Source: a virus. From it: a DNA stretch of 14,011 nucleotides. The stretch lies in the UHGV virus genome UHGV-0131161; one strand, 5' to 3'. Positions 1 to 14,011 of the stretch are shown piece after piece. A program made the translations under genes and the position numbers. Each line of letters starts with the position of its first letter. Positions within the stretch are counted from its first letter, which is position 1. Under the pieces are notes generated by a model. That model was not told the origin of the DNA, made no database searches, and saw only the letters and a list, made by a program, of their open reading frames with translations.

Positions 1-934
1 GGTCACGCTCAATATCACGCTGGCATGACTGACATAGCGGAATCGCGTAAATGTCATGCGCGCATAATCGACTATGACGAACGATATAGGGCGTAATGTG
101 AGCACCATCCCCCGCAGCTCCACAAGCACAACATGGACGAGAAGCAACAAAGTCCATGTATTCGGGCAATTTTAGCGATTGCAGTTTTGGTATTTTGAAA
201 TGCGCCATACCTGGATCGGGGTCAACATCCACAGGACATACTTTTGCACGCATCGGCGCGGCGCGTTCTTCCATCATCTGAACATATGCTGTAGCTCGAT
301 CGTCATACGGGCGAATATCCGCCTCTTTCAGAGGTCCGCTATCCTGCGGTGCAGCCTTCATCTTATTTATTGATATGCGGCAGACTTCTTCCGGCATCAG
401 GTGCATCATGTTGCGCATGAAAGCCCACCAGCACAGCTCCTGAATACTTAAATCATGCCCATCTGAAAGGCCCATTTCCTGACGGGCTACATCCAGTATC
501 CAGTTAACGCGATTATTATGCAGCGTTTCTGTCAGCTCATTAAAACCACGCATCCGGTAATGGTTATCGTGATGCCAGCACAACAACACCGCGCTATTGT
601 CTCGTTCAGCGTGGACAATATGGTTGTCACACCAACTACGATCTGCGGCCTGGCATTGCCCCTCTTTCCTACGCAACCACGCCACCAGCGCGTCAATTCC
701 ACCAAGACGACGAAACAGTTCATCGCTGTTAAAAAACGGCTGCAATGCTTCGTTTGTTGCCATGGATTGCTCGGTAACAACGAGGCCATCTTCCATGTGC
801 TCGATTAACTCGCGCGGCACCGGCTCCATAATAAATTTACGGCCAGCCTCCACCAGCTTTCTGACCTCCTGATCCACTTTGAACGTGGCGAGGCCAAGCT
901 CTTTCTGAACAAAGGGAGTAATTACGGCTTTCAC
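1..934 (-). CDS. Hypothetical protein, partial (3' end beyond window start); Cys/His-rich segment near the window edge
   Basis: Open minus-strand frame with no stop from 934 to position 1 (about 311 codons); absent from the ORF track because no stop lies in the window. First in-frame candidate start is GTG at 934-932, preceded by AAGGTG; the upstream in-frame stop is TAA at 962-964. Translation begins [24 protein letters not shown] and ends ...[47 protein letters not shown]. Confidence 0.5.
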
Positions 935-961
935 ATCACACCTTTCATCACTGATTGGGCT

Positions 962-1141
962 TTATCTGCTGCCCGGCATTCTCTGTTTAAGCACAACCAT
1001 TTCCTGACGGCATAACACAGCAATAGCAGTCCTGGCTCCAATTTGCTTACCAACCAGGTATTGCTTTACCTTGCGGCGACTCACGCCATCAAGAAGCATC
1101 TTTAACGCTTTACGGGACAATTTGTTGTATTTGCGTGCCAT
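962..1141 (-). CDS. Small basic hypothetical protein (59 aa), downstream of doc
   Basis: Track ORF 962..1162 trimmed to the ATG at 1141, which has GGAG about 9 nt upstream and sits 2 nt after the stop of the preceding gene. Lys/Arg-rich (MARKYNKLSRKALKMLLDGVSRRKVKQYLVGKQ...). Confidence 0.5.
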   Translation of the reverse strand: MARKYNKLSRKALKMLLDGVSRRKVKQYLVGKQIGARTAIAVLCRQEMVVLKQRMPGSR

Positions 1142-1145
1142 TAAT

Positions 1146-1421
1146 CTACTCCGCAGAACCATACAATCTACGTAACGTCATAGCAGTAGATGCAGATATC
1201 GCCCTTATAACTTCCTCCTTACTTACATCACTGCGGGAGAGGATTTCAGAAGGCGATATTTCCTTTAATGACTTCTGCTTCTCTTTGCAGCTCTCGACCA
1301 GTTCCGCAGGAATAACAAACCTGCTATCAATCGGCACAAGTTCATCAAGCGTTTGTTTGGGTACGTTAAACGTAGGAACCTTAAACGCCGCAGATTCAGT
1401 TCTTAAGTTAATTCTCGTCAT
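1146..1421 (-). CDS. Hypothetical protein (91 aa), immediately downstream of doc
   Basis: ATG at 1421 with GGAG about 10 nt upstream. C-terminus TLRRLYGSAE resembles the Doc C-terminus in this window ([10 protein letters not shown]). Confidence 0.55.
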   Translation of the reverse strand: MTRINLRTESAAFKVPTFNVPKQTLDELVPIDSRFVIPAELVESCKEKQKSLKEISPSEILSRSDVSKEEVIRAISASTAMTLRRLYGSAE

Positions 1422-1440
1422 AGTTTCGTTACTCCACTAC

Positions 1441-1821
1441 TCAAGTATTGGAACCATATAGTTCACGTAGCTTTTCTGCGACGGAAGATACGGCGATTTC
1501 ACCAGTCGCAGCCCCTACAGTAAGGTCTGCCAGTTCAGGTGAATCAAATACCTGCACCCCGTTACGGCGTAGAAATAGCAGCGCACTGTTTAGCGCGGTA
1601 CGCTTATTGGCATCATTGAATATATGCCCTCTCGCAGTAGCCACCAGGTAGGTGGCGGAGACTTCGAAAAGGTCGGTGATCTCTTCGTAGGCAACTCTGG
1701 CCTGAACTCTCCCGATAATGGCCTCTGCCCTACCCGGATCTGACATTCCCGGCAGGCCGCCGTAGCGGTTTATATTCGCATCATGAAGCGCAATAAGTTC
1801 TTCCGGTGATATATGCCTCAT
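1441..1821 (-). CDS. doc: Doc toxin (Fic-fold, death-on-curing) of the phd-doc toxin-antitoxin pair
   Basis: 126-aa product [95 protein letters not shown]... matches my recollection of P1 Doc nearly residue for residue. Start ATG shares one nucleotide with the phd stop (TAATG). Confidence 0.93.
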
Positions 1822-2042
1822 TATCGGTTAACCAGTTCCTTGTTGGTGGAGTCCAGGGTGTCAAACAGGGATGCAAATTCAGCATCCAGCGCCGCTTTTT
1901 TGTAGGCTTCGAAAGTAGCCTTGCTGACAATTACTGCTGGCTCACGGCCTCTGCGGGTGATTTCAACCTCTTCCCCGGCTTCAACATTGTTGAGCACTTC
2001 AGAAAGGTTGCCGCGCGCGGTACGGAAGTTAATGGATTGCAT
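1821..2042 (-). CDS. phd: Phd antitoxin (Phd/YefM family)
   Basis: 73-aa product [73 protein letters not shown] from the ATG at 2042 (GAGGTG 5 nt upstream). The track start at 2048 is an upstream GTG; the shorter form matches P1 Phd as I recall it. Confidence 0.93.
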
Positions 2043-2048
2043 AAACAC

Positions 2049-2080
2049 CTCGTGTACTCGTTATGTGTACACAATTATAA
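2049..2080 (-). promoter_or_regulatory. phd-doc promoter/operator region: -10 TATAAT plus two GTGTAC core motifs
   Basis: On the minus strand, TATAAT (complement of 2074-2079) is followed by the perfect 10-bp palindrome TGTGTACACA (2064-2073) and a second GTGTAC core (2052-2057), all just upstream of the phd RBS. Layout fits autoregulation by Phd/Doc binding palindromic operators. Confidence 0.55.
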
Positions 2081-2114
2081 ACCTCACAGGCATAAAGCAC
2101 CAGCCCTTTGCAGC

Positions 2115-2504
2115 TTAAATAACCGGACAATCATCAAACTCCCCACTTCGGGCATCATTGATGACATGAGTGATCACACCAAAAACAGCATTACTGCCCG
2201 TGCATCCATCGTCATCTACTGGTAACGCCTCTTTCTTCCCGGTGCTTAAATCCTCCAGGTGCTGGCGCGGATACTTCCTGTATCTCTTTATGCGATATTC
2301 ACCCTCCATAGCGCATATAAGCAGTGAACCATCAACCGGAGTAAGTGAGGAATCAACCACCAGCAAAGCACCTTGCAATATTCCCTCACGGTGATGGCTG
2401 TCTGCCGCCCGCATGAAGTAGGTCGCGGAAGGATGTCTGATTAGTTGCTGATCAAGAGAAATGCGGCTCTCTGCATAATCCGCCGCAGGAGAAGGGAAGC
2501 CCAT
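2115..2504 (-). CDS. humD: UmuD'-like protein (S24 LexA/UmuD family), naturally lacking the N-terminal arm upstream of the UmuD cleavage site
   Basis: Product begins [30 protein letters not shown], aligning with E. coli UmuD from Gly25 ([29 protein letters not shown]). The catalytic Ser (DSH for GDSM) and Lys (EYRIKRY for EFTVKKL) are retained. RBS AAGGT upstream of the ATG at 2504. The arrangement LexA box, humD, phd, doc matches P1. Confidence 0.9.
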   Translation of the reverse strand: [129 protein letters not shown]

Positions 2505-2522
2505 AGCGTTTTACCTTAATGA

Positions 2523-2542
2523 TACTGTTTATTCATACAGTA
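2523..2542 (-). promoter_or_regulatory. LexA box (SOS operator) in the humD promoter
   Basis: TACTGTTTATTCATACAGTA is a perfect CTGT-N8-ACAG match, 19 nt upstream of the humD start. On the minus strand it is immediately preceded by TATACT (-10-like), with TTCACA about 18 nt further upstream (-35-like). Confidence 0.85.
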
Positions 2543-2627
2543 TACATTGAAAAGGCATAGTTTGTGAAAGCGGGGTTTGTAGGCGCGCCACGCTGGGGGC
2601 TAATCACATTTCTCCCCCATCTTGCCG

Positions 2628-2879
2628 TTATTTTTTTGGTGCATCCTCGTTCTGATACACCGGATCGCTCCCTTTTGGCAACTGGAGGCTTAACTGCCGG
2701 TAGTGCCGTAGCCGTTCCATGAAATAGGCGCGCAGGTTTTCCGGTTGCTCACGGGCCACCTGCTCTGCAATCACAGGTATATTCAGCCGTTCTTTGTAAG
2801 CAACGCCGCTGGCGGCAAGGTCTACGTTCACCTTGTCTCGCTCTTCCTGGCTTTTAGCTGCTATATTTCGATCTGACAT
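2628..2879 (-). CDS. hot: Homolog of DNA polymerase III theta subunit (HolE-like)
   Basis: Core [43 protein letters not shown] aligns with E. coli HolE ([43 protein letters not shown]). GGGAGG sits 6 nt upstream of the ATG at 2879. Position just upstream of humD fits P1 hot. Confidence 0.8.
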
Positions 2880-2910
2880 AAGAACCTCCCGGAGTTAGTG
2901 GATCAGGCAC

Positions 2911-3267
2911 ATGCACAATAACGTTCTCAATGTTAGCCGTTCAATTCAGACAATCAGAGACTGCACCAGTGTGGTGGCATCAATCCCATTGCGAAATAGC
3001 ATAGACGAACTGCAAATTCGTGTATTGAACCTGAATCATGCCAATGCAATTAAGCAATTGCGCTTTATTTTGACGCTTAAAAGTGAAGCAGAGGGGGTAA
3101 AGCACAGCGTAAAAGTGTTTTCTGAGGCCATTCTGCTTAATGGGAAGCTCCGGCATCTGGTAAGGCCAGAACGTCAATATCCTGACGTCCTGGCTCGTGA
3201 AAAATACCTTCTTTCCGAAGTTCAAGATAAGGTGATCGATTTCGTTAAATCTCATCCCCTGCATTGA
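2911..3267 (+). CDS. Hypothetical protein (118 aa); the only plausible plus-strand gene, strand assignment uncertain
   Basis: AT-rich segment; the plus-frame product has ordinary composition with several rare codons (AGA, ATA, CGA, AGG, CGG). A competing antisense ORF (2980..3264, minus) cannot be excluded. Only 31 bp separate its ATG from the hot start and there is no clear RBS. Confidence 0.3.
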   Translation: MHNNVLNVSRSIQTIRDCTSVVASIPLRNSIDELQIRVLNLNHANAIKQLRFILTLKSEAEGVKHSVKVFSEAILLNGKLRHLVRPERQYPDVLAREKYLLSEVQDKVIDFVKSHPLH

Positions 3268-3306
3268 GAGCAGGTGTTCCTCTTTGTAACAAAGATGCCA
3301 CCAGCA

Positions 3307-3573
3307 TTATGGTTCGCATTTCCAAATGGTGTTCTGAACGCCCGTGCCGGGCGCGAGATGTGGATTAGCGTTCGCGCTATGCTGATATACGGCTTTAGAC
3401 TTTCCATATTGCTGACAGGCTTTATCTGCGGTTTTTTGCAGACTATCCAGCCCATACCAGCCATCTGACTGGATGCTTACCTTTTCACCGTCGTTGTATT
3501 GCACCATTGCACACCCAGACATAGCCAAGATCGCGCCGACAATAACGCTTTTCCATAAAACTCTATGCAACAT
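3307..3573 (-). CDS. Small secreted protein or lipoprotein candidate (88 aa)
   Basis: From the ATG at 3573 (GAGGGG upstream): MLHRVLWKSVIVGAILAMSGC..., a basic N-region, hydrophobic core and a Cys in lipobox-like context (AMSGC; Met at -3 is atypical). The track start at 3579 is an upstream TTG. Confidence 0.5.
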   Translation of the reverse strand: MLHRVLWKSVIVGAILAMSGCAMVQYNDGEKVSIQSDGWYGLDSLQKTADKACQQYGKSKAVYQHSANANPHLAPGTGVQNTIWKCEP

Positions 3574-3578
3574 ATACA

Positions 3579-3608
3579 AAAATCCCCTCTGTGAATTGAG
3601 GGGATTTT
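3579..3608 (-). terminator. Perfect 11-bp-stem hairpin ending the long minus-strand operon, overlapping the RBS of the following gene
   Basis: AAAATCCCCTC (3579-3589), 8-nt loop, GAGGGGATTTT (3598-3608). On the minus strand the stem is followed by a T-run (ATTTTTGTAT). The GAGGGG arm doubles as the RBS of the 3307..3573 gene. Confidence 0.5.
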
Positions 3609-3682
3609 AGCATGGTGATCAGATATCAGCTTTATTCAGAATTTTACCCACCAGCTATGTGATTTTTTCTGACAGGTCATCT

Positions 3683-4489
3683 TTAATACTTGCACTTATG
3701 ACATGCGAATCTCCACTGTTCATGGTCAAAGCACCAGAATACTTCCCTGGGCAGATTGTGTTTTTTCATTTGCGCCAGCACGTGCGTTGGCGTATTTGCG
3801 GGGATTTCTGGTAGCAAAGCCTTAGCCATTTCATGAATTAACATAGCATCTATTACCCCAAGCGTATGCCCAGCCTTAATCTTTAATGCGGTTTCAAGAT
3901 GGCCCCTTTCCAGAGTTGTACTCACTCTTGGCTTCGGCGCTTGTGGATGGGTATCCAGACGGTTGCCAGATTCATAGGCTACCCGCAGCCAGTGCATGAA
4001 TGTTTCCGTAGACACACAACCGCAGTCCTGGTCGATTTTTTCGTGTTGCTGCCCCAGCCACTGCTCAAAATTTAACTTGTTGGATGCTTCTAGAGCCTCT
4101 TCGTATTGTTTGCGCGAAATTATTTCCGTGTATTCCTCACGATCAAGGTTACTTATCGGGAGTCTGACCTCAAGGCAAAAATGGCGTCCTCGCAGGCTTT
4201 TTGCCGGGTCAGAGCCAAAAGCAAAGAGGCCATATGATGGTTCATACTCGTCCTCTCTAACCATGCGACAATCGAGCACATCATCAGGCCACCCTCCACG
4301 CTTTGGCAGCTCCTGCACCAATAAGTCAATCAGCTTTATTGTTTCACCATCCTTGCAGGTTGCTAACGCTATTTTGGCAAGCTCCAACACCTCATCTGCC
4401 GTATATCCAGCACCGTGACCATACATTTCTATTCGTGCGATAATGTCCAATAAACGAGTTTTAGTTATCCTCATATCGCTCACCATCAT
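3683..4489 (-). CDS. Hypothetical protein (268 aa), last gene of the five-gene coupled block
   Basis: Start reassigned to the ATG at 4489, which overlaps the stop of the upstream membrane-protein gene (ATGA); the track's 4588 start would overlap that gene by about 100 nt. No motif recognised. Confidence 0.6.
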   Translation of the reverse strand: MMVSDMRITKTRLLDIIARIEMYGHGAGYTADEVLELAKIALATCKDGETIKLIDLLVQELPKRGGWPDDVLDCRMVREDEYEPSYGLFAFGSDPAKSLRGRHFCLEVRLPISNLDREEYTEIISRKQYEEALEASNKLNFEQWLGQQHEKIDQDCGCVSTETFMHWLRVAYESGNRLDTHPQAPKPRVSTTLERGHLETALKIKAGHTLGVIDAMLIHEMAKALLPEIPANTPTHVLAQMKKHNLPREVFWCFDHEQWRFACHKCKY

Positions 4490-4794
4490 AGATACACAAA
4501 AACCAAAACCCAAAGGCAGGCGACAGTAGGGACGGTAAAATCCTGCAAGCTCGCCATATCCCATACGCGTGGATCGAAACCGCCCCACCAGGGCATATTG
4601 CTGCGCTTACCGTTCCCGAACTTGTTTATCCATCGGTATTCAGCCTGGGTGTGTTCACGCGCAATAAAGAACGTGATCCCTGCTATCGCTCCATAAATCC
4701 AGTTGCCAGTTAATGTGCCCATAAGCACCTGAGCTAAAACGGCACAAGCCGCATGTAATAATGGGGTAATATCAAAGGACTTATTATTTTTCAT
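4486..4794 (-). CDS. Small membrane protein (102 aa), predicted transmembrane segments
   Basis: Hydrophobic stretches LLHAACAVLAQVLMGTLTGNWIYGAIAGITFFIA and VPTVACLWVLVFVYL. Stop overlaps the start of the 268-aa gene (ATGA). Confidence 0.6.
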   Translation of the reverse strand: MKNNKSFDITPLLHAACAVLAQVLMGTLTGNWIYGAIAGITFFIAREHTQAEYRWINKFGNGKRSNMPWWGGFDPRVWDMASLQDFTVPTVACLWVLVFVYL

Positions 4795-5170
4795 TGCGTG
4801 ACATCCTCTTCCATTTCTTTTCGCATTCCTTAGTCCAATTTTTAATGTTCATTTTGGCAATGTCAGTCATTCCATCGCCTAAGAAATACTTTTTCCGGTA
4901 TGTCTTACACTTAAACCACACTACAATAGCCACCAACCAGAAAATAAAAGGCCATACAGCAATGCCAACGACAGCCGCGATAAAGCCCAATAGCCATAAA
5001 TGAAGCTCTCCTACTTCTGTTTCAGGCAATATCTTTAAAGAGTTAAACAGCAGACTGAACGAATGGTCGTATGCAGTGGCGGTATAAGACATGCAATCCA
5101 TATAATTAAAATCATAGCCTGCGGCTGCCGCCCATAATGGGCGGTCAAGAAAATGTTTGAATGTCATCAT
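4784..5170 (-). CDS. Membrane protein (128 aa) with a long hydrophobic segment and Lys-rich C-terminus
   Basis: Segment LWLLGFIAAVVGIAVWPFIFWLVAIVVWF followed by a KK-rich tail. Its start is 7 nt after the upstream stop and its 3' end overlaps the next gene by 11 nt. Confidence 0.6.
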   Translation of the reverse strand: MMTFKHFLDRPLWAAAAGYDFNYMDCMSYTATAYDHSFSLLFNSLKILPETEVGELHLWLLGFIAAVVGIAVWPFIFWLVAIVVWFKCKTYRKKYFLGDGMTDIAKMNIKNWTKECEKKWKRMSRNEK

Positions 5171-5176
5171 ATGAAT

Positions 5177-5470
5177 TTAAGGTTCAGACCAGTTATCTTC
5201 AATAACAATACTTAATCTCTGTAGCCATTCTGCTAATTTCAGCATTGCTTCTCTTTCGCTTAACCCGCGCGGGAAATCATCAAGCGATATTGTTGGCTTG
5301 AAGTTCCCGAAATTATCCATTTCAACGGTCAGATTTTGCTCCAGCACGGTATTCCTTGCGCGACTATTGTGCCGAAGCAAATATACTGAATGTGATTCAT
5401 TGGTTTTGTGGTCGAACGTATATTCGGTAAGTATCATCTGGCTTTTGCCATGACTATTACCTCTCCACAT
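5177..5470 (-). CDS. Hypothetical soluble protein (97 aa)
   Basis: Start reassigned to the ATG at 5470 (GAGGT 5 nt upstream), immediately after the stop of the 40-aa peptide ORF. The track's longer form from 5566 would overlap that ORF. Confidence 0.55.
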   Translation of the reverse strand: MWRGNSHGKSQMILTEYTFDHKTNESHSVYLLRHNSRARNTVLEQNLTVEMDNFGNFKPTISLDDFPRGLSEREAMLKLAEWLQRLSIVIEDNWSEP

Positions 5471-5477
5471 ACTTACC

Positions 5478-5600
5478 TCACTTAATAAAACAACTCCATG
5501 CGTAGTTGATGATTTTTTCCCACGCAATATAAATCTGCACTCCGGCAGTAAAACCAAAGCCAACAATTGCTGAAAAAATCAAAATATTTACTTTTGACAT
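5478..5600 (-). CDS. Small hydrophobic peptide (40 aa), not in the ORF track
   Basis: ATG at 5600 to TGA at 5478-5480 gives MSKVNILIFSAIVGFGFTAGVQIYIAWEKIINYAWSCFIK, with a single predicted transmembrane helix. Its stop lies 8 nt before the next start. Found by manual translation. Confidence 0.4.
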   Translation of the reverse strand: MSKVNILIFSAIVGFGFTAGVQIYIAWEKIINYAWSCFIK

Positions 5601-5648
5601 TATAAAATTTCTCTCGGTGCAGTAGGTGATAGCACCATAATTGATAAT

Positions 5649-5882
5649 TTAGTGAGTTAGCAGTTCCATTTTTTTGATGATTTCCGCATGAGCATCATCG
5701 TTATCAACACTTAGCTCGTTTAATGCTTCTCGCACTACATCAACCTCTTCAGGCTGAAGGAAGTCGTCGCGGTAATCACCAAATAGAACCGAAACCAGCC
5801 TGCCACCAGCAACATCAAGATTGGCGCTAACAGGTGGCTCTTTGCCATCCTCAAATTCGACTACAAAAGTTAATTTTCCCAT
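5649..5882 (-). CDS. Hypothetical acidic protein (77 aa)
   Basis: ATG at 5882 with a strong RBS (AGGGGG) that overlaps the stop of the 27-aa peptide ORF. The track start at 5900 is a TTG. Product MGKLTFVVEFEDGKEPPV.... Confidence 0.6.
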   Translation of the reverse strand: MGKLTFVVEFEDGKEPPVSANLDVAGGRLVSVLFGDYRDDFLQPEEVDVVREALNELSVDNDDAHAEIIKKMELLTH

Positions 5883-5884
5883 CG

Positions 5885-5968
5885 TTACCCCCTGCGACAA
5901 ATTGAATACACAACCAGTGCTACCGCCATTGCAATTCCGACCGTGGTGAATGCCTCAGGCCAGCTCAT
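5885..5968 (-). CDS. Small hydrophobic peptide (27 aa), not in the ORF track
   Basis: ATG at 5968 overlaps the DUF551 gene stop (ATGA), with GGAGG 6 nt upstream. Product MSWPEAFTTVGIAMAVALVVYSICRRG. Its TAA lies inside the RBS of the next gene. Confidence 0.4.
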   Translation of the reverse strand: MSWPEAFTTVGIAMAVALVVYSICRRG

Positions 5969-6669
5969 TGATCGACCTCCTGCGGCGGTTCTGGTAGCGA
6001 CATCCAGTCGGTTACATTGCGACTCTGTGTTTCGAAAAATTCATCACCATTGCGGACAATATCGAAAAACTCTCCGTCTCGATATTGCGCATAAAGAACG
6101 AATGCGCCATCACATAAAATAATTACGTGCTGACCATCCTCTGGCATTCGCTCACTACAGCTTATCCAACCATCCGGAGTTACCGGATAGTTGCCATTCA
6201 CAAGGTCAGCTCGAACATATAGCGTGTCATCATGGTGCTGATTGTGGCTGCACCACGTTAATTCGCTTAACTCGCCATCTTCTGGCCATACTCCAGCTGT
6301 TTGCAGCCAGATATGGGCTGGCGCATCTTGGCAAGGTGTATTAACTGGCAACTTGTAAGTTTGGCTTACAGGTTGGCTACCCTGAAGCATGGCAGCGTGG
6401 CAGGCATCCTCTACGCCCTTTACTGCATCTGCGCAGTAGTTATAGCGATTGCATTCCACTAATTTCCGTTTGAGTTTTTCAATTGCTTGCGCGACATCAG
6501 CCTGTATTTCCGGAACTGGCGGTTCTGCCCGGCCTTTCCAGCCTTCCCACATGGCAGCCATCATCACGAACCAAGCGTTTCCACAGCCATCTTTTTTGTT
6601 ATCAAAGAACCAGTCAGCGAACTCTAGGCTCATGCCATTTTGTTCTGCTATTTCATATCGATTATCCAT
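5965..6669 (-). CDS. DUF551-domain phage protein (234 aa)
   Basis: C-terminal GWISCSERMPEDGQHVIIL...DGEFFDI...VTDWMSLPEPPQ matches the DUF551 signature as I recall it (W-I-S-x-E-R-L-P-E ... T-H-W-M-P-L-P-E-P-P). Confidence 0.7.
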   Translation of the reverse strand: MDNRYEIAEQNGMSLEFADWFFDNKKDGCGNAWFVMMAAMWEGWKGRAEPPVPEIQADVAQAIEKLKRKLVECNRYNYCADAVKGVEDACHAAMLQGSQPVSQTYKLPVNTPCQDAPAHIWLQTAGVWPEDGELSELTWCSHNQHHDDTLYVRADLVNGNYPVTPDGWISCSERMPEDGQHVIILCDGAFVLYAQYRDGEFFDIVRNGDEFFETQSRNVTDWMSLPEPPQEVDQ

Positions 6670-7033
6670 TGTTCTTCTCCTTGTTTAGCATGGCAGCACG
6701 GCAGGCATTCCAGCCTCTCACCTCTGCAATAGCGGCAACAGCATCGACCGCGTACATTTTAAGAGGGTTGGGCATTGGTTTTTCTTCAGGTACTACTGGC
6801 ACTGGAGTGGCGGCATAAACAGGAATAACGTCCGCTTGCTCTTTATTGCTTTCATCCGTTAAAGCCCAGAATAATTTCCCGGCAGGATGTTTGAAAATAT
6901 AAGCAACTGGATCTGCTTCCAGCGATGCCAGTGCAATTTCATAAGCACGGCGCTCAATATTGTCTCGAACGTCCAAGCTGCCTATGCGCTCTTTGATTTC
7001 TTTAATCAGTTCTTTGTCGGTAAAAGTGGTCAT
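6662..7033 (-). CDS. Hypothetical phage protein (123 aa) sharing a short motif with the adjacent DUF551 gene
   Basis: C-terminal GWNACRAAML parallels ACHAAML in the DUF551 protein, with a 20-nt DNA match. ATG at 7033 lies 1 nt after the Ea22-like gene stop. Confidence 0.6.
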   Translation of the reverse strand: MTTFTDKELIKEIKERIGSLDVRDNIERRAYEIALASLEADPVAYIFKHPAGKLFWALTDESNKEQADVIPVYAATPVPVVPEEKPMPNPLKMYAVDAVAAIAEVRGWNACRAAMLNKEKNNG

Positions 7034-7034
7034 G

Positions 7035-7787
7035 TCACTCTCCTTTGATGCGAATGCCAGCGTCAGACATCATATGCAGATACTCAACTGCATCCTGAAC
7101 CCATTGACCGCCAATCCCGTAATAGCGATGCGTAATGATGTCGATAGTTACTAACGGGTCTTGTTCGATTAACTTCCGCAGAAACTCTTCCAGGTCACCA
7201 GTGCAGTGCTTGATGACAGGAGTTTTCCCAGGATGGCGAACAACAAGAAACTGATTTCCGACTTCACGGACTTCGTTGCTTTCCAGTTCTGCAATGCGCT
7301 TCTCTGAGGCTTCCAGCTTCTCGCGCATATCGTCAACGTACTCGACCAGAGAACCGCCAGCAGGAATTTCGCACTCCTCGACCAGTTGGAAGTAGATATC
7401 AGCTGCGGCCCGTGTGTTGCTATGCCTAGCGTCGCCCATCTCACCTTCACGAAGAGCATCGCGTTCGGCGGTAAGATTGGCTATTTTGCTGTCTTTGCCT
7501 TCCAGCTCAACGCGCAGCCTCCCAACCGTAAGCGCAATATCCTCGTTCTCCTGGTCGCGTGATTTGATGTATTGCTGGTTTCTTTCCCGTTCATCCAGTA
7601 GTGCCAGCACGGTTTCTGGTCCGGCCAGAAATTTGAAGGCGTTGAGCGCATCAATATCCACACCGTAATCTTTAAGTTCCTGTTCACTTAACAAATCATC
7701 ATCAACTGGCAACATTAACAGGCGTTCCATTGCCGGAATTGCACGTTCTGCCGCCTCACGCAGTGCCTGATAGTCAATCTTGCTCAT
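7035..7787 (-). CDS. Ead/Ea22-like family protein (250 aa), paralog 2
   Basis: N-terminus MSKIDYQALREAAERA..., which I associate with lambdoid Ea22-like early accessory proteins; central coiled-coil-like region. Family assignment from memory. Confidence 0.6.
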   Translation of the reverse strand: MSKIDYQALREAAERAIPAMERLLMLPVDDDLLSEQELKDYGVDIDALNAFKFLAGPETVLALLDERERNQQYIKSRDQENEDIALTVGRLRVELEGKDSKIANLTAERDALREGEMGDARHSNTRAAADIYFQLVEECEIPAGGSLVEYVDDMREKLEASEKRIAELESNEVREVGNQFLVVRHPGKTPVIKHCTGDLEEFLRKLIEQDPLVTIDIITHRYYGIGGQWVQDAVEYLHMMSDAGIRIKGE

Positions 7788-7788
7788 G

Positions 7789-8088
7789 TCACATCACCCT
7801 GAATCCGTTGCATTTACGTAAGAAATCGCAGATATAGCCCTTCATTTTTTCATGCCAATCTCGATCATTCCCATTGCACCAACCATCAGGTGGAGTCCAG
7901 TTTTCTATCAGAGCAGCCATTTTCTTTGCTTTCGCCGGAGTAGCTGTTGCGGTATCGCAGTAATGACGAGTGTCAACCAACGCATCCATACCATCGATAT
8001 CAAGTACGCAAAACCATGTGTGATTCGGCATTTCAACAGATGGTATTTGTTGCCCACGTCGACGTTTATCAATAAGACATACAGTCAC
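7789..8088 (-). CDS. Hypothetical protein (99 aa) between the two Ea22-like genes
   Basis: GTG start at 8088 with a strong RBS (AAGGAGG 7 nt upstream), overlapping the upstream stop (GTGA). Its stop lies 1 nt before the next ATG. Confidence 0.55.
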   Translation of the reverse strand: MTVCLIDKRRRGQQIPSVEMPNHTWFCVLDIDGMDALVDTRHYCDTATATPAKAKKMAALIENWTPPDGWCNGNDRDWHEKMKGYICDFLRKCNGFRVM

Positions 8089-8723
8089 TGGTTGCCTCCT
8101 TTGCGAAGCTGTTCAGCAATACTTACGCATATCTCTGCGCCTCTAATCAGCCCCGGAACGTTCTTGTTTGGCCCAACTTCACCATCAACAAAATCAATCA
8201 TCGCGTTACGAGCCATATCCACGCCCTGCGCCCGTACTTCAGCCAGGAAAGCATCGGTGGCTGGAATGGGCTTTTGTGGTGATATAGCAATGCGAATTGT
8301 CTCAAGGTCTGGATCTGTTTCCGCTGCTGGCACCTTGATATAACCCATCTGCACCCCATTCATGATGAACCTGCGACGGTCATCACATATCGCCTTTAGC
8401 CCCGCATTCTCGGCCACCAGCGCCGCGAGATTAGTCTCAAGCTCTGCAATTCGACACATAGCATCAATATTTGTGTCCTCCAGGCACTTAATTTCACCAA
8501 GCAGCTCCAGTGCAACCTTTGGGTTGAACGCGGCAACATGACGAGCGTTGTTCTCTGCATTTTTCTGTCCATCAAAGCCGGTCCATTTGATAACGTCTTC
8601 ACATCGTTCATCACCGGGCGTGTGCACCGCATAAGTACCAGTATCCGTCGAAATAAATGCGACCCATTCGTCTGGTGTTGCCTTTTCTGCCGCCTCACGC
8701 AGTACCTGATAGTCAATTGTCAT
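8085..8723 (-). CDS. Ead/Ea22-like family protein (212 aa), paralog 1
   Basis: Start reassigned to the ATG at 8723 (MTIDYQVLREAAEKATPDEW...), which overlaps the upstream stop (ATGA) and has GAAGGA upstream. Shares a 33-nt near-identical 5' segment with paralog 2. Confidence 0.6.
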   Translation of the reverse strand: MTIDYQVLREAAEKATPDEWVAFISTDTGTYAVHTPGDERCEDVIKWTGFDGQKNAENNARHVAAFNPKVALELLGEIKCLEDTNIDAMCRIAELETNLAALVAENAGLKAICDDRRRFIMNGVQMGYIKVPAAETDPDLETIRIAISPQKPIPATDAFLAEVRAQGVDMARNAMIDFVDGEVGPNKNVPGLIRGAEICVSIAEQLRKGGNQ

Positions 8724-9364
8724 TCTCGCCATCCTTCACAGTTGTAATCACTACAGCCTTCAAAATCATATGGGCTGTACTGCCAGGTTATTTTTCCGCA
8801 ATGCGGACAATTCCAACGCACCTTCCCGCTTCGCGACTTCTTTCTTCTGTTCTGCTCTTTCAACCAGTCAGGCATGACCAAACCTGCGCCCTGAACCATT
8901 GTTCTGCGGTTAAAGTTATTGATATTGAACGTCCGACGCTTTGCTGAATCAGCAATGGAAAATGGCAACCAAACTATTCCTGGTTCGTTTTTGTTGGCGA
9001 CGCTAAAGATGGTCGCTTTACTGAAGTCATCTGTTGGCAATCCACCGTGTTGAAGCCAGTAAACATCGTTGCCGTTCCAGCTACCTTTTTTGTAGGCCAC
9101 ATACGCAGTGCAATCTGACTCAATCAGGCTTTCTGTAGGGATGTACTGGCAATCAACGTGCCACACAGCCATTGCATCCACACTATCGGCACAAACAGGC
9201 TGATCGATATCTCGCCCACAATTCCAGGCTTTTTGGGCTTCTTCCAGCGTGTAAACATGAGCGCGATCGATATCAGAACTGTAACCATTGCCGTTATGGC
9301 AATGGAATGAAGCGTTATTACCCACAGTTTCACGCAAGCACATCATGTAAAAGCGGTTATTCAC
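8720..9364 (-). CDS. Hypothetical protein (214 aa) with a C-terminal Cys cluster
   Basis: C-terminal NCPHCGK...CSDYNC (CxxC-N15-CxxxxC), a possible zinc ribbon. Coupled to flanking genes by overlaps. Confidence 0.55.
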   Translation of the reverse strand: MNNRFYMMCLRETVGNNASFHCHNGNGYSSDIDRAHVYTLEEAQKAWNCGRDIDQPVCADSVDAMAVWHVDCQYIPTESLIESDCTAYVAYKKGSWNGNDVYWLQHGGLPTDDFSKATIFSVANKNEPGIVWLPFSIADSAKRRTFNINNFNRRTMVQGAGLVMPDWLKEQNRRKKSRSGKVRWNCPHCGKITWQYSPYDFEGCSDYNCEGWRE

Positions 9365-9572
9365 TGGTCGCCTCCCAGCAAATTTGTCTTATATAAGAAC
9401 TGTTAACGCGCTTTACTTTCCCGTCGAACTCCAGTTTCTTTAGACGACGCAAAACGTATGCCGTTTTGAGTGTGCGATATTTATCCCTAAGCCAGTTGGT
9501 CACGACGTAAGTCATACAGCGCCCGTGTTCTTCCAACACCCGAACTATTTCTTCGTCGGTTGGCTTGCTCAT
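9357..9572 (-). CDS. Small basic hypothetical protein (71 aa), possible DNA-binding fold
   Basis: Basic product (…LRRLKKLEFDGKVKRV…); ATGA overlap with the upstream gene. Fold assignment is speculative. Confidence 0.5.
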   Translation of the reverse strand: MSKPTDEEIVRVLEEHGRCMTYVVTNWLRDKYRTLKTAYVLRRLKKLEFDGKVKRVNSSYIRQICWEATSE

Positions 9573-9790: not shown

Positions 9791-9799
9791 ACGCTCGCC

Positions 9800-10525: not shown

Positions 10526-10534
10526 GCATCCCCC

Positions 10535-10621
10535 TTACCCATGCGCGACGATGCCGCCAAAAGTGATAGAGAACAGCCAGAAATAGATCGCGGCCATAAT
10601 GATTTTGAATGCCGTGTTCAT
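10535..10621 (-). CDS. Small hydrophobic peptide (28 aa), first ORF of the long operon; not in the ORF track
   Basis: ATG at 10621 with AGGAG 8 nt upstream; product MNTAFKIIMAAIYFWLFSITFGGIVAHG; TAA at 10535-10537. Confidence 0.4.
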   Translation of the reverse strand: MNTAFKIIMAAIYFWLFSITFGGIVAHG

Positions 10622-10648
10622 ATTTTCAGCTCCTGTGATTGATTAGAT

Positions 10649-10680
10649 ACATGCCGCGCCTTGCGGCATGTTTTTATTTT
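10649..10680 (+). terminator. Rho-independent terminator-like hairpin, U-tract on the plus strand
   Basis: ACATGCCGC (10649-10657), loop GCCTT, GCGGCATGT (10663-10671), then TTTTATTTT (10672-10680). The U-tract is on the plus side even though the flanking genes are on the minus strand. Confidence 0.5.
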
Positions 10681-10703
10681 CACTTTCCCTGCTTTAAAAA
10701 TCA

Positions 10704-10720
10704 AGATTTATTAGAGCAAT
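10704..10720 (-). promoter_or_regulatory. P1 C1-repressor operator-like site (16/17 to consensus)
   Basis: Minus-strand ATTGCTCTAATAAATCT against the recalled consensus ATTGCTCTAATAAATTT. Overlaps the stop of the HAD phosphatase gene and lies about 85 nt upstream of the first ORF of the long operon. Confidence 0.5.
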
Positions 10721-11226
10721 TACTGCTGATGAAGAAGCGCATTTTCATACTCCCTGACCATTAACGTAAGCACGCCGTGTCTCCTGAAAACACGCGCCAC
10801 TTCAATCTTATCTTCCAGCGCGAACGCAATTTTACTTAGACCAATTTTCTTAAGGAGATCAATCTTTGCTGGGCCGTCATTTCTGTCATCGGTGGCAGGG
10901 CGCATAGATAGCAAAGGCTCAGCCCCGTTTGTTACGTACTTCCGCAGCCAAGCTCGTGTTTTATCCCTTGCGATCTCACAGCGCCCGGTTACAAACCAGA
11001 CCGTGTAAACGTTAAATAACTGGCGCACAATATCAATAACTGGAGTTATGGGAGTATCAGTGTCACAGGCGAGATTAAACTCGTTCCAGTCCTTTGTTAA
11101 TGCACCTTTACCTGGTGGCGGAAGCAAATGCAGTCTGTCTTCCGTTGCCTCCGATATTGTTCCATCAATATCGACTATGACGATATACGGACGTTCCTGG
11201 TGTGCGTGTTTATTGAAAATACTCAA
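10720..11226 (-). CDS. HAD-superfamily phosphatase (P1 pap-like acid phosphatase candidate)
   Basis: HAD motif I VDIDGT near the N-terminus (…PYIVIVDIDGTISE…). TTG start at 11226 with a strong RBS (GAGGAGGG); the upstream in-frame stop leaves no ATG option. Confidence 0.65.
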   Translation of the reverse strand: MSIFNKHAHQERPYIVIVDIDGTISEATEDRLHLLPPPGKGALTKDWNEFNLACDTDTPITPVIDIVRQLFNVYTVWFVTGRCEIARDKTRAWLRKYVTNGAEPLLSMRPATDDRNDGPAKIDLLKKIGLSKIAFALEDKIEVARVFRRHGVLTLMVREYENALLHQQ

Positions 11227-11243
11227 ATGCCCTCCTCATTGGA

Positions 11244-11279
11244 CGAAAAAAATGCTGGTGGGACGCACTCCACCAGCAT
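11244..11279 (-). terminator. Rho-independent terminator after the coiled-coil protein gene; stem formed by a Chi octamer and its complement
   Basis: ATGCTGGTGG (11252-11261), loop GACGCACT, CCACCAGCAT (11270-11279). On the minus strand it is followed by TTTTTTT (complement of 11244-11250). Confidence 0.6.
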
Positions 11280-11299
11280 TAAAAGTGACACTGTAACTA

Positions 11300-12562
11300 T
11301 CAGCGAACGTAAATAGTGCCGCCGTTCTCTTTTTCCCATGCGTCGCTACGTGCATAGCAAACATCGAGAAGTCTTCTTGCCGCTGTTTCCTCTAAACCCA
11401 ATTCGACAACCAACTGTTCATGACGGCGGGTAACCACATCAAACAACGTATGCAGCCCTTTAGTTGCCAGTTCATCAATGAATTCCGGTTCGAACGGTAG
11501 CTCTGCATCTGCCAACATAACCTCTTGCGCCCACTCGACACGGCGGACCAGTTCCGGGCGGCGGCTTTCCATCTCTTTACAGATCAATTCATGGAAGAAC
11601 TCTACCCAACCTTCCGGCTGGAACTCGCGGAAAATGGCCAGCGGCTGGAAGTTTGGCATCAACCATTCGTTGATTCGGATATCAATGGCATAGCCCATGT
11701 CACAGCAGAACTGATAAGCAAAGTCCAGCTTAGAAACGATATAAGGGCGCTCGTTATTGAACTCTTTAGGCGATGAGATCCCATAAGCCAGGAGGCGCGG
11801 GAAGAAGGATATTTGCCCTAACGTCGGATGGAGTTTACTTGCAGGGAAACGGCGCTCAGTAATGCCATACATTTCCTTCTTGAGTGTCGCAAATTTGGCA
11901 TTTTCATTAACCAGCTCGGTAACCTCTGCTTTTTTATTAGCAAATGCCACGCGCGCCTCACTTGCATCTTTAATGGCCTTTTTGAGCTGTTGGTTAAGGT
12001 CGGCGACCTGCTTACGCAGTTCCTGGCGCTCGCTTTTGGCTTTGTTATAGCGTTTCTCAAGGTTAAAAGGATCAAGTTTCATGATCTCTTTATATTGAGA
12101 TTTTAGCGTTGAAATCTGTGAGTTCCGCAGCTCAACCATCGCAGTCATTTCATTGAGTTTTGTTTCCAACTCAATGCTTATACGTTCGGCATTATCAGCA
12201 CGCTGGTTGGCGTCATGCGTCGCATCGTCGATGGCGTCCTGTTGCTGGCGTTTCAAATGCTCAATTTGCAGCTGAAGCTCTTCAATTTCTTTCCCCTTCA
12301 GACCGAGATCCAGCTGCATATTTTCAGCTGCATCTACCAGGTCGTTATGGCTATCAGCTTCTGCGTTATAAACATCAATAAGCTGTGCGTGAAGCATCTC
12401 AGCTGACTGAACCGCATTATCAAAAAAACGTGCTGTGAGGTCATCACAACTAACGCGGCGTTGCGCGGCTCGGATGTTCTGAATAATGGCCGGGATACCG
12501 GCATTCAGGACGTCAGGGATAGATACATTTTCGATTGATTGGTTTTGTGCTGAAGTGCTCAT
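11300..12562 (-). CDS. Coiled-coil protein (420 aa) with a C-terminal globular region (P1 pmgS-position gene)
   Basis: Residues about 70-230 are heptad-like and rich in E/K/Q/L (…EIEELQLQIEHLKRQQQDAIDDATHDANQRADNAERISIELETKLNEM…). Its start is 1 nt after the stop of the upstream small gene. Confidence 0.65.
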   Translation of the reverse strand: MSTSAQNQSIENVSIPDVLNAGIPAIIQNIRAAQRRVSCDDLTARFFDNAVQSAEMLHAQLIDVYNAEADSHNDLVDAAENMQLDLGLKGKEIEELQLQIEHLKRQQQDAIDDATHDANQRADNAERISIELETKLNEMTAMVELRNSQISTLKSQYKEIMKLDPFNLEKRYNKAKSERQELRKQVADLNQQLKKAIKDASEARVAFANKKAEVTELVNENAKFATLKKEMYGITERRFPASKLHPTLGQISFFPRLLAYGISSPKEFNNERPYIVSKLDFAYQFCCDMGYAIDIRINEWLMPNFQPLAIFREFQPEGWVEFFHELICKEMESRRPELVRRVEWAQEVMLADAELPFEPEFIDELATKGLHTLFDVVTRRHEQLVVELGLEETAARRLLDVCYARSDAWEKENGGTIYVR

Positions 12563-12563
12563 T

Positions 12564-12782
12564 TCAAAGTTCCGTATTAGCTTGTGCTTCGGTCATTTTT
12601 CCTAAGTATGAAGGTGGAAGGACTACGCAATTTGTATCCAGTCCCTCACCAATGGCAGCCTGTAAAATTCTGGCTAAGGTGAGTCTCTTGTTGCGATACC
12701 GGGTGATGACATGCCTGATATCGCCGGACGGTGTAACAAAGGCGATCAGCCAGTAGTGATATTTCCGTCGGAATGGCCACAT
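12564..12782 (-). CDS. Small hypothetical protein (72 aa)
   Basis: ATG at 12782 with AAGGTG 6 nt upstream, directly downstream of the operator/terminator complex. Confidence 0.5.
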   Translation of the reverse strand: MWPFRRKYHYWLIAFVTPSGDIRHVITRYRNKRLTLARILQAAIGEGLDTNCVVLPPSYLGKMTEAQANTEL

Positions 12783-12796
12783 AGTGCACCTTATGG

Positions 12797-12862
12797 ATTG
12801 CTCTAATAAAAAACGTGATGAGTGTACATCACGTTTTAAAAATATGGAATTATTAGAGCAAT
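12797..12862 (-). promoter_or_regulatory. Pair of inverted P1 C1 operator-like sites flanking a 10-bp-stem terminator hairpin
   Basis: Plus-strand ATTGCTCTAATAAAAAA (12797-12813; 14/17) and minus-strand ATTGCTCTAATAATTCC (complement of 12846-12862; 14/17) flank the hairpin AAACGTGATG (12811-12820) / CATCACGTTT (12827-12836). A T-run follows the hairpin on the minus strand. Confidence 0.5.
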
Positions 12863-12863
12863 A

Positions 12864-13565
12864 TTATTCTGATTCTTGCTCAAAAAACGCGCTAATGAGG
12901 GGAAGCCAATCCTCTGACACTTCGCGAGGTCGCGGTTTGCCGTGGAAAAAGATTATTCGGCAGTCCTTTGGTAATGCCCCATTCCCCCTGGAGTAACGCG
13001 CGCTTGCATATTTAGAACCAGGTTCCACAACATCGGCCTTGTAACTTACAAACCATCCCGGATACAGATCCTGAAATGCTGGTGTGTCATCGCCCATAAC
13101 CTTCCGCAAGAACCCCTGATCACCCCAGCACTCAGTAGTAACACAACGAGCAATCCAACCTTCCGGATCTTGCCAGAATGCACTCCAGATGTGCGCTTTT
13201 ACACTATTTGGTATCCACAGAGCACCGCTGCCACGATATTGTGGATGGTAAAAATCCCTAAGCATGGTGAAGCTGGTTGGTGGATTCTCAAGAATTGGGC
13301 GTATATCACCGGCAATAACCGTGTCCAAATCCAGGTAGAAGAGATCATCGGTTATATCCGGTCGAAACAACTCGATTTTCGCCCACCAGCCACGGCACTT
13401 TTGCCACTGGTTGATTAATGGGACAACCTTAACGCCTGGCACATGTAAACTCTTCAGGTCTGTCAGGCAAATAATTTCATAGCCTTTTGGCAGCTGATTA
13501 ACCAGCCACTGCACATCGGAAGCGTTATAGTCGCCACCAGAGCGAAGAACTAAAGCAATCTTCAT
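12864..13565 (-). CDS. Putative DxD-motif nucleotide-sugar transferase-like protein (233 aa; P1 pmgQ-position gene)
   Basis: N-terminal strand MKIALVL and an acidic DLD triad in YLDLDTV near residue 80, reminiscent of GT-A glycosyltransferases; low-confidence fold guess. ATGA overlap with the phosphatase gene stop. Confidence 0.55.
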
Positions 13566-14011
13566 GCTGCACCATCACCTTTCACTTTCATCAATGTCAG
13601 GTTTCCGCAAAATACGGCTCCAGTGTCGATATAATGCTGATTCCAGAATGTCTTCGGGCTTTTCACCGGGGTATGACCAAAGATAAAACGATCTGCTCCC
13701 GAAATTTCGCCACCAATATCATCCATCGAATCACTGATACGCTCGCGCGCCCAGACAACATTGAAAAGCGGTACCTCCTTACCGAATTGATATTCATTAT
13801 CCGGATAGTCGGCATGGGCTATAACAATAGTTTCTCGCCCGGTGTTCAGCTCAATGATATAGGGCAGACGTCTTACCAGCTCCACCAGCGCCCTGGCTAA
13901 TATTTCCTGATCAGTGTCGAGCATGAAGAACCATTGTCCGCCATTCATTAGCCAGTTATTCACGTTGCCATCGGGGCTTAACGCATCAATCATCAGCCGC
14001 TCATGGTTGCC
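13562..14011 (-). CDS. Lambda-type Ser/Thr protein phosphatase (calcineurin-like metallophosphatase), partial; N-terminus beyond window end (P1 ppp-like)
   Basis: Frame stays open to the window edge. Contains GNHE at the edge (revcomp of 13994-14011 gives GNHERL), plus GHTP and IDTGA motifs typical of PPP-family metallophosphatases. Confidence 0.85.

Follow-up and report, generated by a model that had tools for sequence, protein, structure and literature searches.

The 14,011-nt stretch of DNA analysed here (the window) is a segment of a mosaic P1-like phage-plasmid, extending from pdcB to ppp, and it carries an array of genuine, selected Chi sites that is part of the known Chi over-representation in P1-like phage-plasmids. 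Nearly all of these sites face the neighbouring pac site, and in six diverged lineages Chi orientation likewise faces pac, whichever genes are present and on whichever strand they lie. We give a probability of about 0.6 to the reading that the array was selected as such and is read by RecBCD, which would enter at the free end produced when pac is cleaved. The Chi excess itself is already known for P1, and the pac-anchored asymmetry is a modest extension of it.

Where alignable, the window was ~96% identical to P1 and corresponded to the reverse complement of P1 81003–89792. It is homologous and syntenic with the P1 pdcB-doc-phd-humD...pap-pmgS-pmgQ-ppp block, which adjoins lpa/pacA. Position 1 of the window matches P1 position 89792, while the pac cut lies at 90806 and lox at 94800/1, which puts the start of the window 1.0 kb away from pac, on the lpa side. 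Related records came from Escherichia, Salmonella, Shigella and Klebsiella, and enteric bacteria recognise the Chi octamer GCTGGTGG via RecBCD (PMC12315714). The preliminary description had suggested that RecBCD entering from the low-coordinate side would read the minus-strand sites and that their orientation should be compared with pac. RecBCD does recognise Chi from the 3′ side (PMC12315714), and the low-coordinate side proved to be the pac side. No record in the three collections searched covered at least 80% of the window, so whole-replicon counts were made on P1, D6 and JK004 as whole-genome stand-ins.

Exact matching revealed 12 Chi sites in the window, 11 on the minus strand and one on the plus strand. 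These are the totals originally reported, and the positions listed with them were also correct, apart from 5804, which was wrong by one base (correct 5803). Dinucleotide-preserving shuffles (n = 200) gave a mean of 0.47 sites on both strands together, in agreement with the previously quoted random expectation of about 0.2 per strand; the maximum was 3, and 0 of 200 shuffles reached 12. Chi is the rank-1 octamer of the window's minus strand, and its density in the window is one per 1.17 kb.

Such an excess could be a by-product of codon and amino-acid usage (Leu-Val as CTG-GTG) in co-oriented genes, without selection on Chi. The minus strand of the window is G-rich, and all eight coding sites lie in the sense orientation in minus-strand genes (three in pdcB and one each in humD, a small hypothetical gene, an Ead/Ea22-like gene, pmgQ and ppp), which bears out the claimed co-orientation with transcription. 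Five of the eight are in the frame ..G-CTG-GTG-G, as are 18 of the 28 sense sites of P1. However, codon-preserving shuffles, named beforehand as the test that could refute the enrichment, reached 11 minus-strand sites in 0 of 3000 trials. Compared with the 11 observed, synonymous-codon shuffles, performed both per gene and pooled, gave 4.5 minus-strand sites (three of which are the fixed intergenic copies), and codon-order shuffles gave 3.4. The 24 one-mismatch neighbours of Chi, synonymous variants included, had a mean of 0.42 copies, making Chi 26 times commoner, and four of the 12 sites are intergenic. The shuffles and the one-mismatch neighbours ruled out a codon-usage artefact as the source of the enrichment.

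The first site from the pac side (425–432, minus strand) lies ~1.44 kb from the pac cut, sense to pdcB in the frame.GC-TGG-TGG, and is kept in P1, pESBL3231 and JK004, the last being locally only ~70% identical. Two more minus-strand sites, at 682–689 and 850–857, are sense to pdcB in the frame ..G-CTG-GTG-G. Both occur in P1, and in JK004 the former is mutated and the latter absent; JK004 pdcB carries three Chi of its own, mostly at offsets unlike those of the window. The minus-strand sense sites in humD (2357–2364) and ppp (13882–13889) are kept in P1 and D6, and that in pmgQ (13383–13390) is kept in P1 and JK004. Two others, also on the minus strand and sense, are missing from the P1 reference: one in a 77-aa hypothetical gene (site 5803–5810, gene 5649–5882, frame GCT-GGT-GG), present in six related plasmids, and one in the Ead/Ea22-like gene (site 8414–8421, gene 8085–8723), present in four. 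In total, eight of the 12 window sites are shared with the P1 reference, where they fall at 81125–89361.

Two intergenic minus-strand sites border a lipoprotein-like cassette. The site at 3298–3305 lies just downstream (3′) of the stop codon that closes a small lipoprotein-like ORF (3307–3579), within a 22-nt junction separating two mosaic modules, and among the sampled relatives it was found in this window only. The site at 3648–3655 marks the upstream edge of the cassette, and this junction copy also occurs in three other plasmids with differing upstream context. When 51 unique homology breakpoints relative to 14 relatives were examined, mosaic recombination junctions showed no significant excess near Chi (p = 0.21 at 15 nt, 0.09 at 25 nt and 0.46 at 100 nt). 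A link between junctions and Chi is accordingly retained as an anecdote at the 3307–3655 cassette only.

The remaining two sites occupy a hairpin resembling an intrinsic terminator (11251–11280, minus strand) between pmgS and pap, composed of AATGCTGGTGG, an 8-nt loop and CCACCAGCATT, followed by TTTTT. Its stem of 11 pairs, six of them G-C, contains Chi in both orientations. The minus-strand copy (11270–11277) lies in the 5′ arm and is present in P1 and mutated in JK004, and the 3′ arm holds the sole plus-strand copy (11254–11261). Since both copies are in the arms of the pmgS terminator stem, the plus-strand Chi is a forced mirror image of its partner. The 11-bp stem and the T-run agree with the initial placement of this lone site inside a palindromic terminator.

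At the level of whole genomes, P1 is reported to contain 50 Chi in 94.8 kb, with Chi as its most frequent octamer (PMC12315714; PMC10028697). Our recount also gave 50, or one per 1.9 kb, in line with the preliminary description of P1 as Chi-rich; the totals for the other two complete genomes were 53 in D6 and 103 in JK004. In their abstract, Lobocka et al. (2004, J Bacteriol 186:7032) reportedly call P1 'particularly rich in Chi recombinogenic sites'. Chi was also the rank-1 octamer in P1, D6, JK004 and three of the divergent loci introduced below (L072, L087 and L088). Synonymous-codon and codon-order shuffles of P1 gave 11.5 and 8.3 sites, respectively, against the 50 observed, a number reached in 0 of 1000 trials. 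The 17 antisense Chi of P1, compared with ~1 expected, also argue against codon usage as the cause.

The window and P1 belong to the same replicon family and share both the octamer and its first rank. They differ in that the window is mosaic, with four extra Chi in accessory modules missing from P1, and in that its Chi density exceeds that of P1 as a whole. Enrichment over the codon-order null was 17–18 fold on both pac flanks and 4–8 fold elsewhere. Region-resolved synonymous shuffles gave a deceptively uniform enrichment of ~5 fold, because the preserved amino-acid context regenerates existing sites, and codon-order shuffles were used instead. Individual sites appear to turn over: JK004 keeps two of the six alignable window sites, a number too small for a test of positional conservation, yet it has 21 Chi in the equivalent block.

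The window alone cannot separate strand bias from transcription, because all of its coding Chi are sense in co-oriented genes. In the P1-type block, unique sites showed a strand ratio of 32:9, which is not significantly different from the sense baseline of codon-order shuffles (0.69–0.74; p = 0.14–0.35), as codon usage would predict. From this ratio we first concluded that co-oriented genes explain the bias; the conclusion was revised after lineages with genes transcribed away from pac in the region upstream of it had been considered.

The comparison set comprised six diverged P1-like lineages with 65–74% nucleotide identity where alignable. PacA-based scans of viral contigs provided the divergent loci L072, L078 and L079, although nearly all their other returns were relatives at ≥95% identity, and genome contigs provided L087 and L088. 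The P1 pac sequence had no blastn match in D6 or JK004, and pac was positioned in these two genomes by its offset inside pacA. On the lpa side, within 10 kb of pac, 51 Chi faced pac and six did not in the six lineages. On the pacB side, the sites were split 24:32, or 37:28 with P1 added, the latter differing from the 51:6 of the lpa side at p = 9e-5 (Fisher's test). One-mismatch neighbour octamers on the lpa side were distributed 53:39, compared with 51:6 for Chi (p = 4e-5).

Orientation also followed pac where transcription did not. In genes transcribed toward pac, Chi was sense in a ratio of 39:4, whereas in genes transcribed away from pac it was antisense in a ratio of 7:1 (Fisher's test, p = 2e-5), the latter sample, which carries the pac-facing claim, being small (eight Chi, from other lineages, one of them in a predicted ORF at L087 4406–4786). 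The away-facing genes are, in the Pantoea and Serratia elements, parM/StbA with its partner (Pfam E = 6e-18 and 1e-13) and, in L072, an Lxr homolog. One Chi in JK004 is a counter-example: its gene is transcribed away from pac, but the site is sense and does not face pac. Given the antisense sites, together with the shuffles, a mere by-product of codon usage is improbable as an account of the array.

Non-random Chi orientation is also known from the E. coli chromosome, where the same octamer and enzyme show a leading-strand bias associated with broken-fork repair. If the bias in P1-like elements likewise followed replication from the plasmid origin, Chi should lie on the leading strand; the P1 block is indeed located rightward of oriR, its Chi falling on the would-be leading strand, and the cumulative GC-skew minimum of P1 is near oriR. 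However, the leading strand held only 60% of the Chi in P1, 55% in D6 and 50% in JK004, and the best origin/terminus bipartition did not exceed 62%. JK004 carries its pac block in inverted orientation with respect to rep/par, and Chi still faces pac there. At these 50–60% values a chromosome-type leading-strand skew was not supported, and replication direction is a most improbable source of the bias. The window also differs from the chromosome in density, which is ~4 times that of the host; E. coli has ~1 Chi per 4.5 kb.

A directional need might instead act on the whole genome rather than at pac, with the orientation guarding the tail of rolling-circle replication intermediates. According to Dabert, Ehrlich and Gruss (1992), Chi reportedly protects rolling-circle plasmids from RecBCD. 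The resemblance would be that a correctly oriented Chi halts degradation of a linear double-stranded end, although their plasmid is said to have carried one engineered site, whereas here a natural array is anchored on pac by its orientation. A mild genome-wide excess in the packaging-normalised orientation (P1 31:19, D6 33:20, JK004 62:41) fits such a need. Most of the asymmetry nevertheless arises within ~16 kb of pac on its lpa side, with only ~55–57% outside this region, and the pacB side is balanced, which makes protection of rolling-circle tails an improbable origin of the orientation.

A role has already been proposed for Chi in P1, namely that Chi-stimulated RecBCD/RecA recombination of the terminal repeats circularises injected virion DNA (PMC12315714), and with this role alone the orientation of the block would be incidental. 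On the packaged side of pac, the zone of the headful ends, Chi is dense and balanced in orientation, as this model requires, and the antisense fraction is highest there (Fisher's test, upstream versus downstream regions, p = 0.013). The window, however, spans 1–15 kb upstream of pac, while headful ends would reach ~45 kb downstream, given ~12% redundancy and ~4 genomes per concatemer. Because these ends fall downstream of pac, the block would not be part of the terminal repeat; it is still as strongly enriched as the repeat zone (17–18 fold), and it is one-sided where the repeat zone is balanced. It is thus unlikely that circularisation of injected DNA is the only function served by these sites.

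Entry of RecBCD at the pac cut, our preferred reading, accommodates both the position and the orientation of the array. Phages of the P1 type rely on RecA and RecBCD of the host (PMC12315714), so their linear DNA ends are exposed to RecBCD. The block adjoins pac on the lpa/pdcB side, which is probably the side not threaded into the capsid. Packaging away from the lpa/pdcB side, toward pacB, is suggested by the location of lox on the pacB side, 4 kb from pac, by terminal repeats of ~5–12 kb and by the cyclisation of injected DNA through Cre-lox; an explicit statement of the P1 packaging direction was not found in the literature searched. RecBCD entering the free end left by the pacase would meet Chi from the 3′ side, with the first site ~1.4 kb in from the pac cut and eleven more within 15 kb. 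Chi recognition would then switch the enzyme from degradation to RecA loading, so that the upstream concatemer would be spared and recombination fed. Such protection and recombination, like RecBCD entry at the pac cut itself, are what the arrangement of the sites leads us to infer. Sternberg and Coulby reportedly observed instability in vivo of the pac end that is not packaged; this would count against efficient protection.

The same logic underlies the cos-Chi orientation rule of phage lambda (Kobayashi et al. 1982). Terminase occludes the packaged end in lambda and LLS phages and the Chi cluster faces the free end, and in LLS-class lambdoid phages Chi is clustered near the free right end (PMC12315714). 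As in these phages, many co-oriented Chi adjoin the packaging cut of the window on what would be the terminase-free side, facing the entering RecBCD, and P1 also uses host RecBCD instead of inhibiting it (PMC12315714). Unlike them, the window derives from a headful pac phage-plasmid and not from a cos lambdoid phage, and the other side of pac is Chi-dense as well, in both orientations. In P1, a functional dependence on Chi orientation is a prediction.

Since the Chi excess of P1 is already documented, the main finding counts chiefly as a validated call. What the extension adds is the suggestion that the lambda rule, with Chi facing the unprotected side of the packaging cut, also holds for headful pac phage-plasmids. 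Chi strand asymmetry could then predict the position of pac and the direction of packaging in many unannotated P1-like plasmids. Chi content and orientation near pac may also affect the yield of P1 phagemids and transducing vectors, a point of relevance to their design. More tentatively, the co-oriented array on the non-packaged side of pac may constitute an element of its own under positional selection in P1-like phage-plasmids, serving as a guard-and-recombine zone for the unprotected concatemer end. Turnover of individual sites would maintain it in lineages ranging from Escherichia to Pantoea and Serratia, whatever genes or gene strands occupy the zone. If this is true, Chi asymmetry by itself could show where pac lies and which way packaging runs in headful phages yet to be characterised.

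A pattern search of both strands detected 12 copies of the Chi octamer GCTGGTGG, the signal that switches host RecBCD from DNA destruction to repair, in the 14,011-base window. Eleven lie on the minus strand (425, 682, 850, 2357, 3298, 3648, 5803, 8414, 11270, 13383 and 13882) and one on the plus strand (11254). This is the split given in the preliminary description, whose coordinates also hold except for one, placed at 5804 instead of 5803. In 200 dinucleotide-preserving shuffles, the count for both strands together averaged 0.47 and never exceeded 3. Chi is the commonest minus-strand octamer (11 copies); the runners-up reach 6, and some of them share seven bases with Chi by overlap (CTGGTGGC, six copies; TGCTGGTG, five copies). 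All eight coding sites are in the sense orientation, five of them in the frame ..G-CTG-GTG-G. The plus-strand copy at 11254 is the complement of the 3' arm of a hairpin stem between pmgS and pap (11251-11280; 11-bp stem AATGCTGGTGG, 8-nt loop, CCACCAGCATT, then a T run), and this pairing forces it to mirror the minus-strand copy at 11270. At this pmgS terminator (P1 83737/83752) Chi itself is the stem, so that both orientations are presented; further close inverted Chi pairs are found in P1 at 77742/77756 and 19386/19441.

Phage P1 and many Escherichia and Salmonella plasmids of ~95 kb are ~96% identical to the window, which corresponds, as reverse complement, to P1 81003-89792. In the phage, plasmid and E. 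coli collections, 80% coverage of the window was not reached by any record. Judged by its sequence, the window is a mosaic P1-like phage-plasmid segment. Genes were modelled by tblastn with proteins of P1 and of the related plasmid pESBL3231. Their order is pdcB (truncated by the window start), pdcA, doc, phd, humD and hot, followed by an accessory stretch with Ead/Ea22-like, DUF551 and DUF7739 genes (3.3-9.4 kb) and then by pmgT, pap, pmgS, pmgR, pmgQ and ppp; all genes but one are on the minus strand. The P1 record places the packaging cut site pac at 90804-90813, within pacA, and lox at 94800/1. According to these coordinates and the alignment, the distance between pac and window position 1 is ~1.0 kb, the window lying on the lpa/pdcB side. 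Eight of the 12 window Chi sites are P1 reference sites, and the remaining four (3298, 3648, 5803 and 8414) are in accessory modules absent from P1.

The mosaic accessory region (~3300-9400) carries lambdoid-type genes (two Ead/Ea22-like and one each of DUF551, DUF7739 and DUF1382), parts of it being matched at ~96% by Stx-converting prophages. Its gene content is different in almost every sampled relative, with conserved flanks. A 272-bp insertion between pdcA and doc (1179-1450), where homology is lost exactly at 1178/1451 in 14 of 14 sampled relatives, is present at ~94.5% identity in ~10 other P1-like plasmids of E. albertii and E. coli. The 91-aa minus-strand ORF at this position (1146-1421) belongs to phrog_31462 (function unknown) and gave no match in a Pfam search; its stop and the start of pdcA overlap, an arrangement seen in P1 between the doc stop and pdcA.

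The Chi excess is a known property of P1 and its novelty is low. Published counts give 50 copies in 94.8 kb, with Chi the most frequent octamer and TGCTGGTG second at 32, in a phage that needs host RecA and RecBCD (PMC12315714). Our recount (27 + 23 = 50, divided 31:19 between top and bottom strands; runner-up octamer 32) agrees with the earlier characterisation of P1 as unusually Chi-rich. Chi is likewise the top octamer in D6 (53 copies) and in Cronobacter phage JK004 (103 copies). JK004 (MZ188976.1, 93.8 kb) has one Chi per 0.9 kb, twice the P1 density, and ~57 of its 103 sites occupy a 31-kb stretch on pac's packaged side.

If the enrichment were a by-product of codon bias, codon-preserving shuffles should yield similar counts, as the preliminary description recognised. 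Three shuffles were performed with intergenic bases fixed: synonymous codons per gene, synonymous codons pooled across genes, and codon order. Shuffled windows averaged 4.5, 4.5 and 3.4 minus-strand sites (3 of them fixed intergenic sites) versus 11 observed, a count attained in 0 of 3000 shuffles, and shuffled whole P1 gave 11.5, 10.7 and 8.3 versus 50, attained in 0 of 1000. Thus, codon or amino-acid usage does not account for the enrichment, and this explanation is rejected; it is also contradicted by the scarcity of the 24 one-mismatch neighbours of Chi, which average 0.42 copies in the window. Within P1 genes, 17 antisense Chi sites were counted versus about one expected under the codon-order null. 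Region-resolved synonymous shuffles, which gave a uniform five-fold enrichment, were discarded because that null regenerates existing sites.

Within the P1-type block, strand bias cannot be told from co-oriented transcription. In codon-order shuffles, sense Chi is ~2-3 times as likely as antisense. Unique Chi contexts in 13 related blocks (32 minus, 9 plus) depart from 1:1 (p = 0.0002) but do not differ from the sense baseline of 0.69-0.74 (p = 0.14-0.35). Additional PacA-anchored loci were taken from viral and genome collections: L072, L087 (Candidatus Pantoea alvi) and L088 (a Serratia species). Where alignable, they are 65-74% identical in nucleotide sequence to each other and to P1, D6 and JK004, and the top octamer in each is Chi. 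In L087 and L088, transcription of the two genes adjoining pacA runs away from pac, on the opposite strand. The larger of the two encodes a ParM/StbA-type ATPase (Pfam PF06406, E = 6e-18 and 1e-13; the two copies are 38% identical). These genes contain two Chi sites in L087 and three in L088, all antisense, all facing pac and at non-homologous offsets. In L072, a single Chi, antisense and facing pac, lies in an opposite-strand gene for a homolog of P1 Lxr (69% identity). The partition ATPase and its small partner gene (L087 8281-9842, L088 8210-9828) hold the position in these Pantoea and Serratia P1-like elements that lpa and pdcB hold in P1.

Chi sites were then tallied over 10 kb on either side of pac in six lineages, with the window standing for the P1 group. 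On the lpa side, 51 sites face pac and 6 do not; the corresponding numbers on the pacB side are 24 and 32. With P1 included on the pacB side (37:28), the difference from 51:6 is significant (p = 9e-5). Sites in genes transcribed toward pac are predominantly sense (39:4), and those in genes transcribed away from it antisense (7:1). This dependence on gene direction is significant (Fisher's test, p = 2e-5), and the sites in away-transcribed genes differ from a sense baseline of 0.72 (p = 8e-4). Consequently, orientation goes with pac rather than with transcription, and this is specific to the exact octamer: the 24 one-mismatch neighbours split 53:39 on the lpa side, different from Chi (p = 4e-5).

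Density was compared between flanks of 16 kb (lpa side) and 35 kb (pacB side), pooling P1, D6 and JK004 under the codon-order null. Sense enrichment was ~17-18 fold on both sides of pac, antisense enrichment near pac was 12-27 fold, and the rest of the genome reached 4-8 fold; the antisense fraction peaked on the pacB side (Fisher's test, p = 0.013). The Chi pattern tracks pac in spite of the rearrangements that separate D6 and JK004 from P1. An orientation set by replication is not supported, the leading-strand Chi fraction being only 60% in P1, 55% in D6 and 50% in JK004. A genome-wide requirement of rolling-circle tails predicts asymmetry everywhere, but beyond the lpa-side zone the ratio is only ~55-57%.

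The rearrangements of D6 and JK004 are large. The doc-phd-humD...ppp block of D6 is found 8-15 kb downstream of pac, on its packaged side. JK004 has its c1-pacBA-pdcB...ppp block in inverted orientation with respect to the block of rep, par and capsid genes. In both genomes, Chi density and orientation track pac. Two further P1-like contigs, L078 and L079, carry four minus-strand ORFs inserted upstream of pac (1786-8210), provisionally a type I restriction-modification (hsd) insertion. These 6.4 kb lack Chi on both strands, as would fit a recent acquisition not yet enriched in it, and the flanking P1 DNA retains its sites.

Two mosaic junctions versus pESBL3231 fall within ~20 nt of Chi. However, 51 unique homology breakpoints against 14 relatives showed no significant concentration near Chi (p = 0.09-0.46), and an association with mosaic recombination junctions was dropped on this ground. 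Chi coincides exactly with the upstream edge of a 349-bp lipoprotein-like cassette (3307-3655), both here and in three other plasmids that differ in the sequence upstream; in the window, a further Chi marks the downstream edge, directly after the stop codon. We regard this as an anecdote. The 90-aa product of the cassette (phrog_7757, function unknown) has a lipoprotein-like signal peptide (…LAMSGC…), and a hairpin resembling an intrinsic terminator (3579-3608) lies just upstream of the start codon.

No statement of the P1 packaging direction was found in the literature searched. Injected linear P1 DNA is cyclised by Cre-lox (PMC4330346), so lox is needed in the terminal repeat, described as ~5-10 kb (PMC12315714) or ~12% of the genome (PMC10999674). 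In the P1 record, the distance between pac and lox is 4.0 kb by way of pacB and c1 and 90.8 kb the other way; we therefore infer that packaging starts at pac and passes pacB, c1 and then lox, heading away from the window. Sternberg's work reportedly agrees with this direction. RecBCD reads Chi from its 3' side (PMC12315714), which means that the minus-strand sites are recognised by an enzyme travelling toward higher coordinates, as the preliminary description had proposed. The interpretation given there is supported. RecBCD would start at the pac cut and travel through unpackaged DNA, meeting the window sites correctly oriented. On the packaged side, Chi is dense in both orientations, in the region where the two ends of successive headfuls would fall and would both have to be processed for circularisation by recombination. 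The window is outside the terminal repeats of the first ~four headfuls; thus, the published cyclisation role alone does not explain its enrichment.

In lambda and LLS-class lambdoid phages, the packaged end is occluded by terminase and the other is open to RecBCD, with a Chi cluster facing it (PMC12315714). The P1-type pattern fits the same logic, with a one-sided Chi array on the free side of pac, where RecBCD would enter at the cut, perhaps with a protective or recombinogenic benefit. The pac-anchored asymmetry of Chi orientation, overriding gene strand in six diverged lineages, is a modest extension of the known P1 property.
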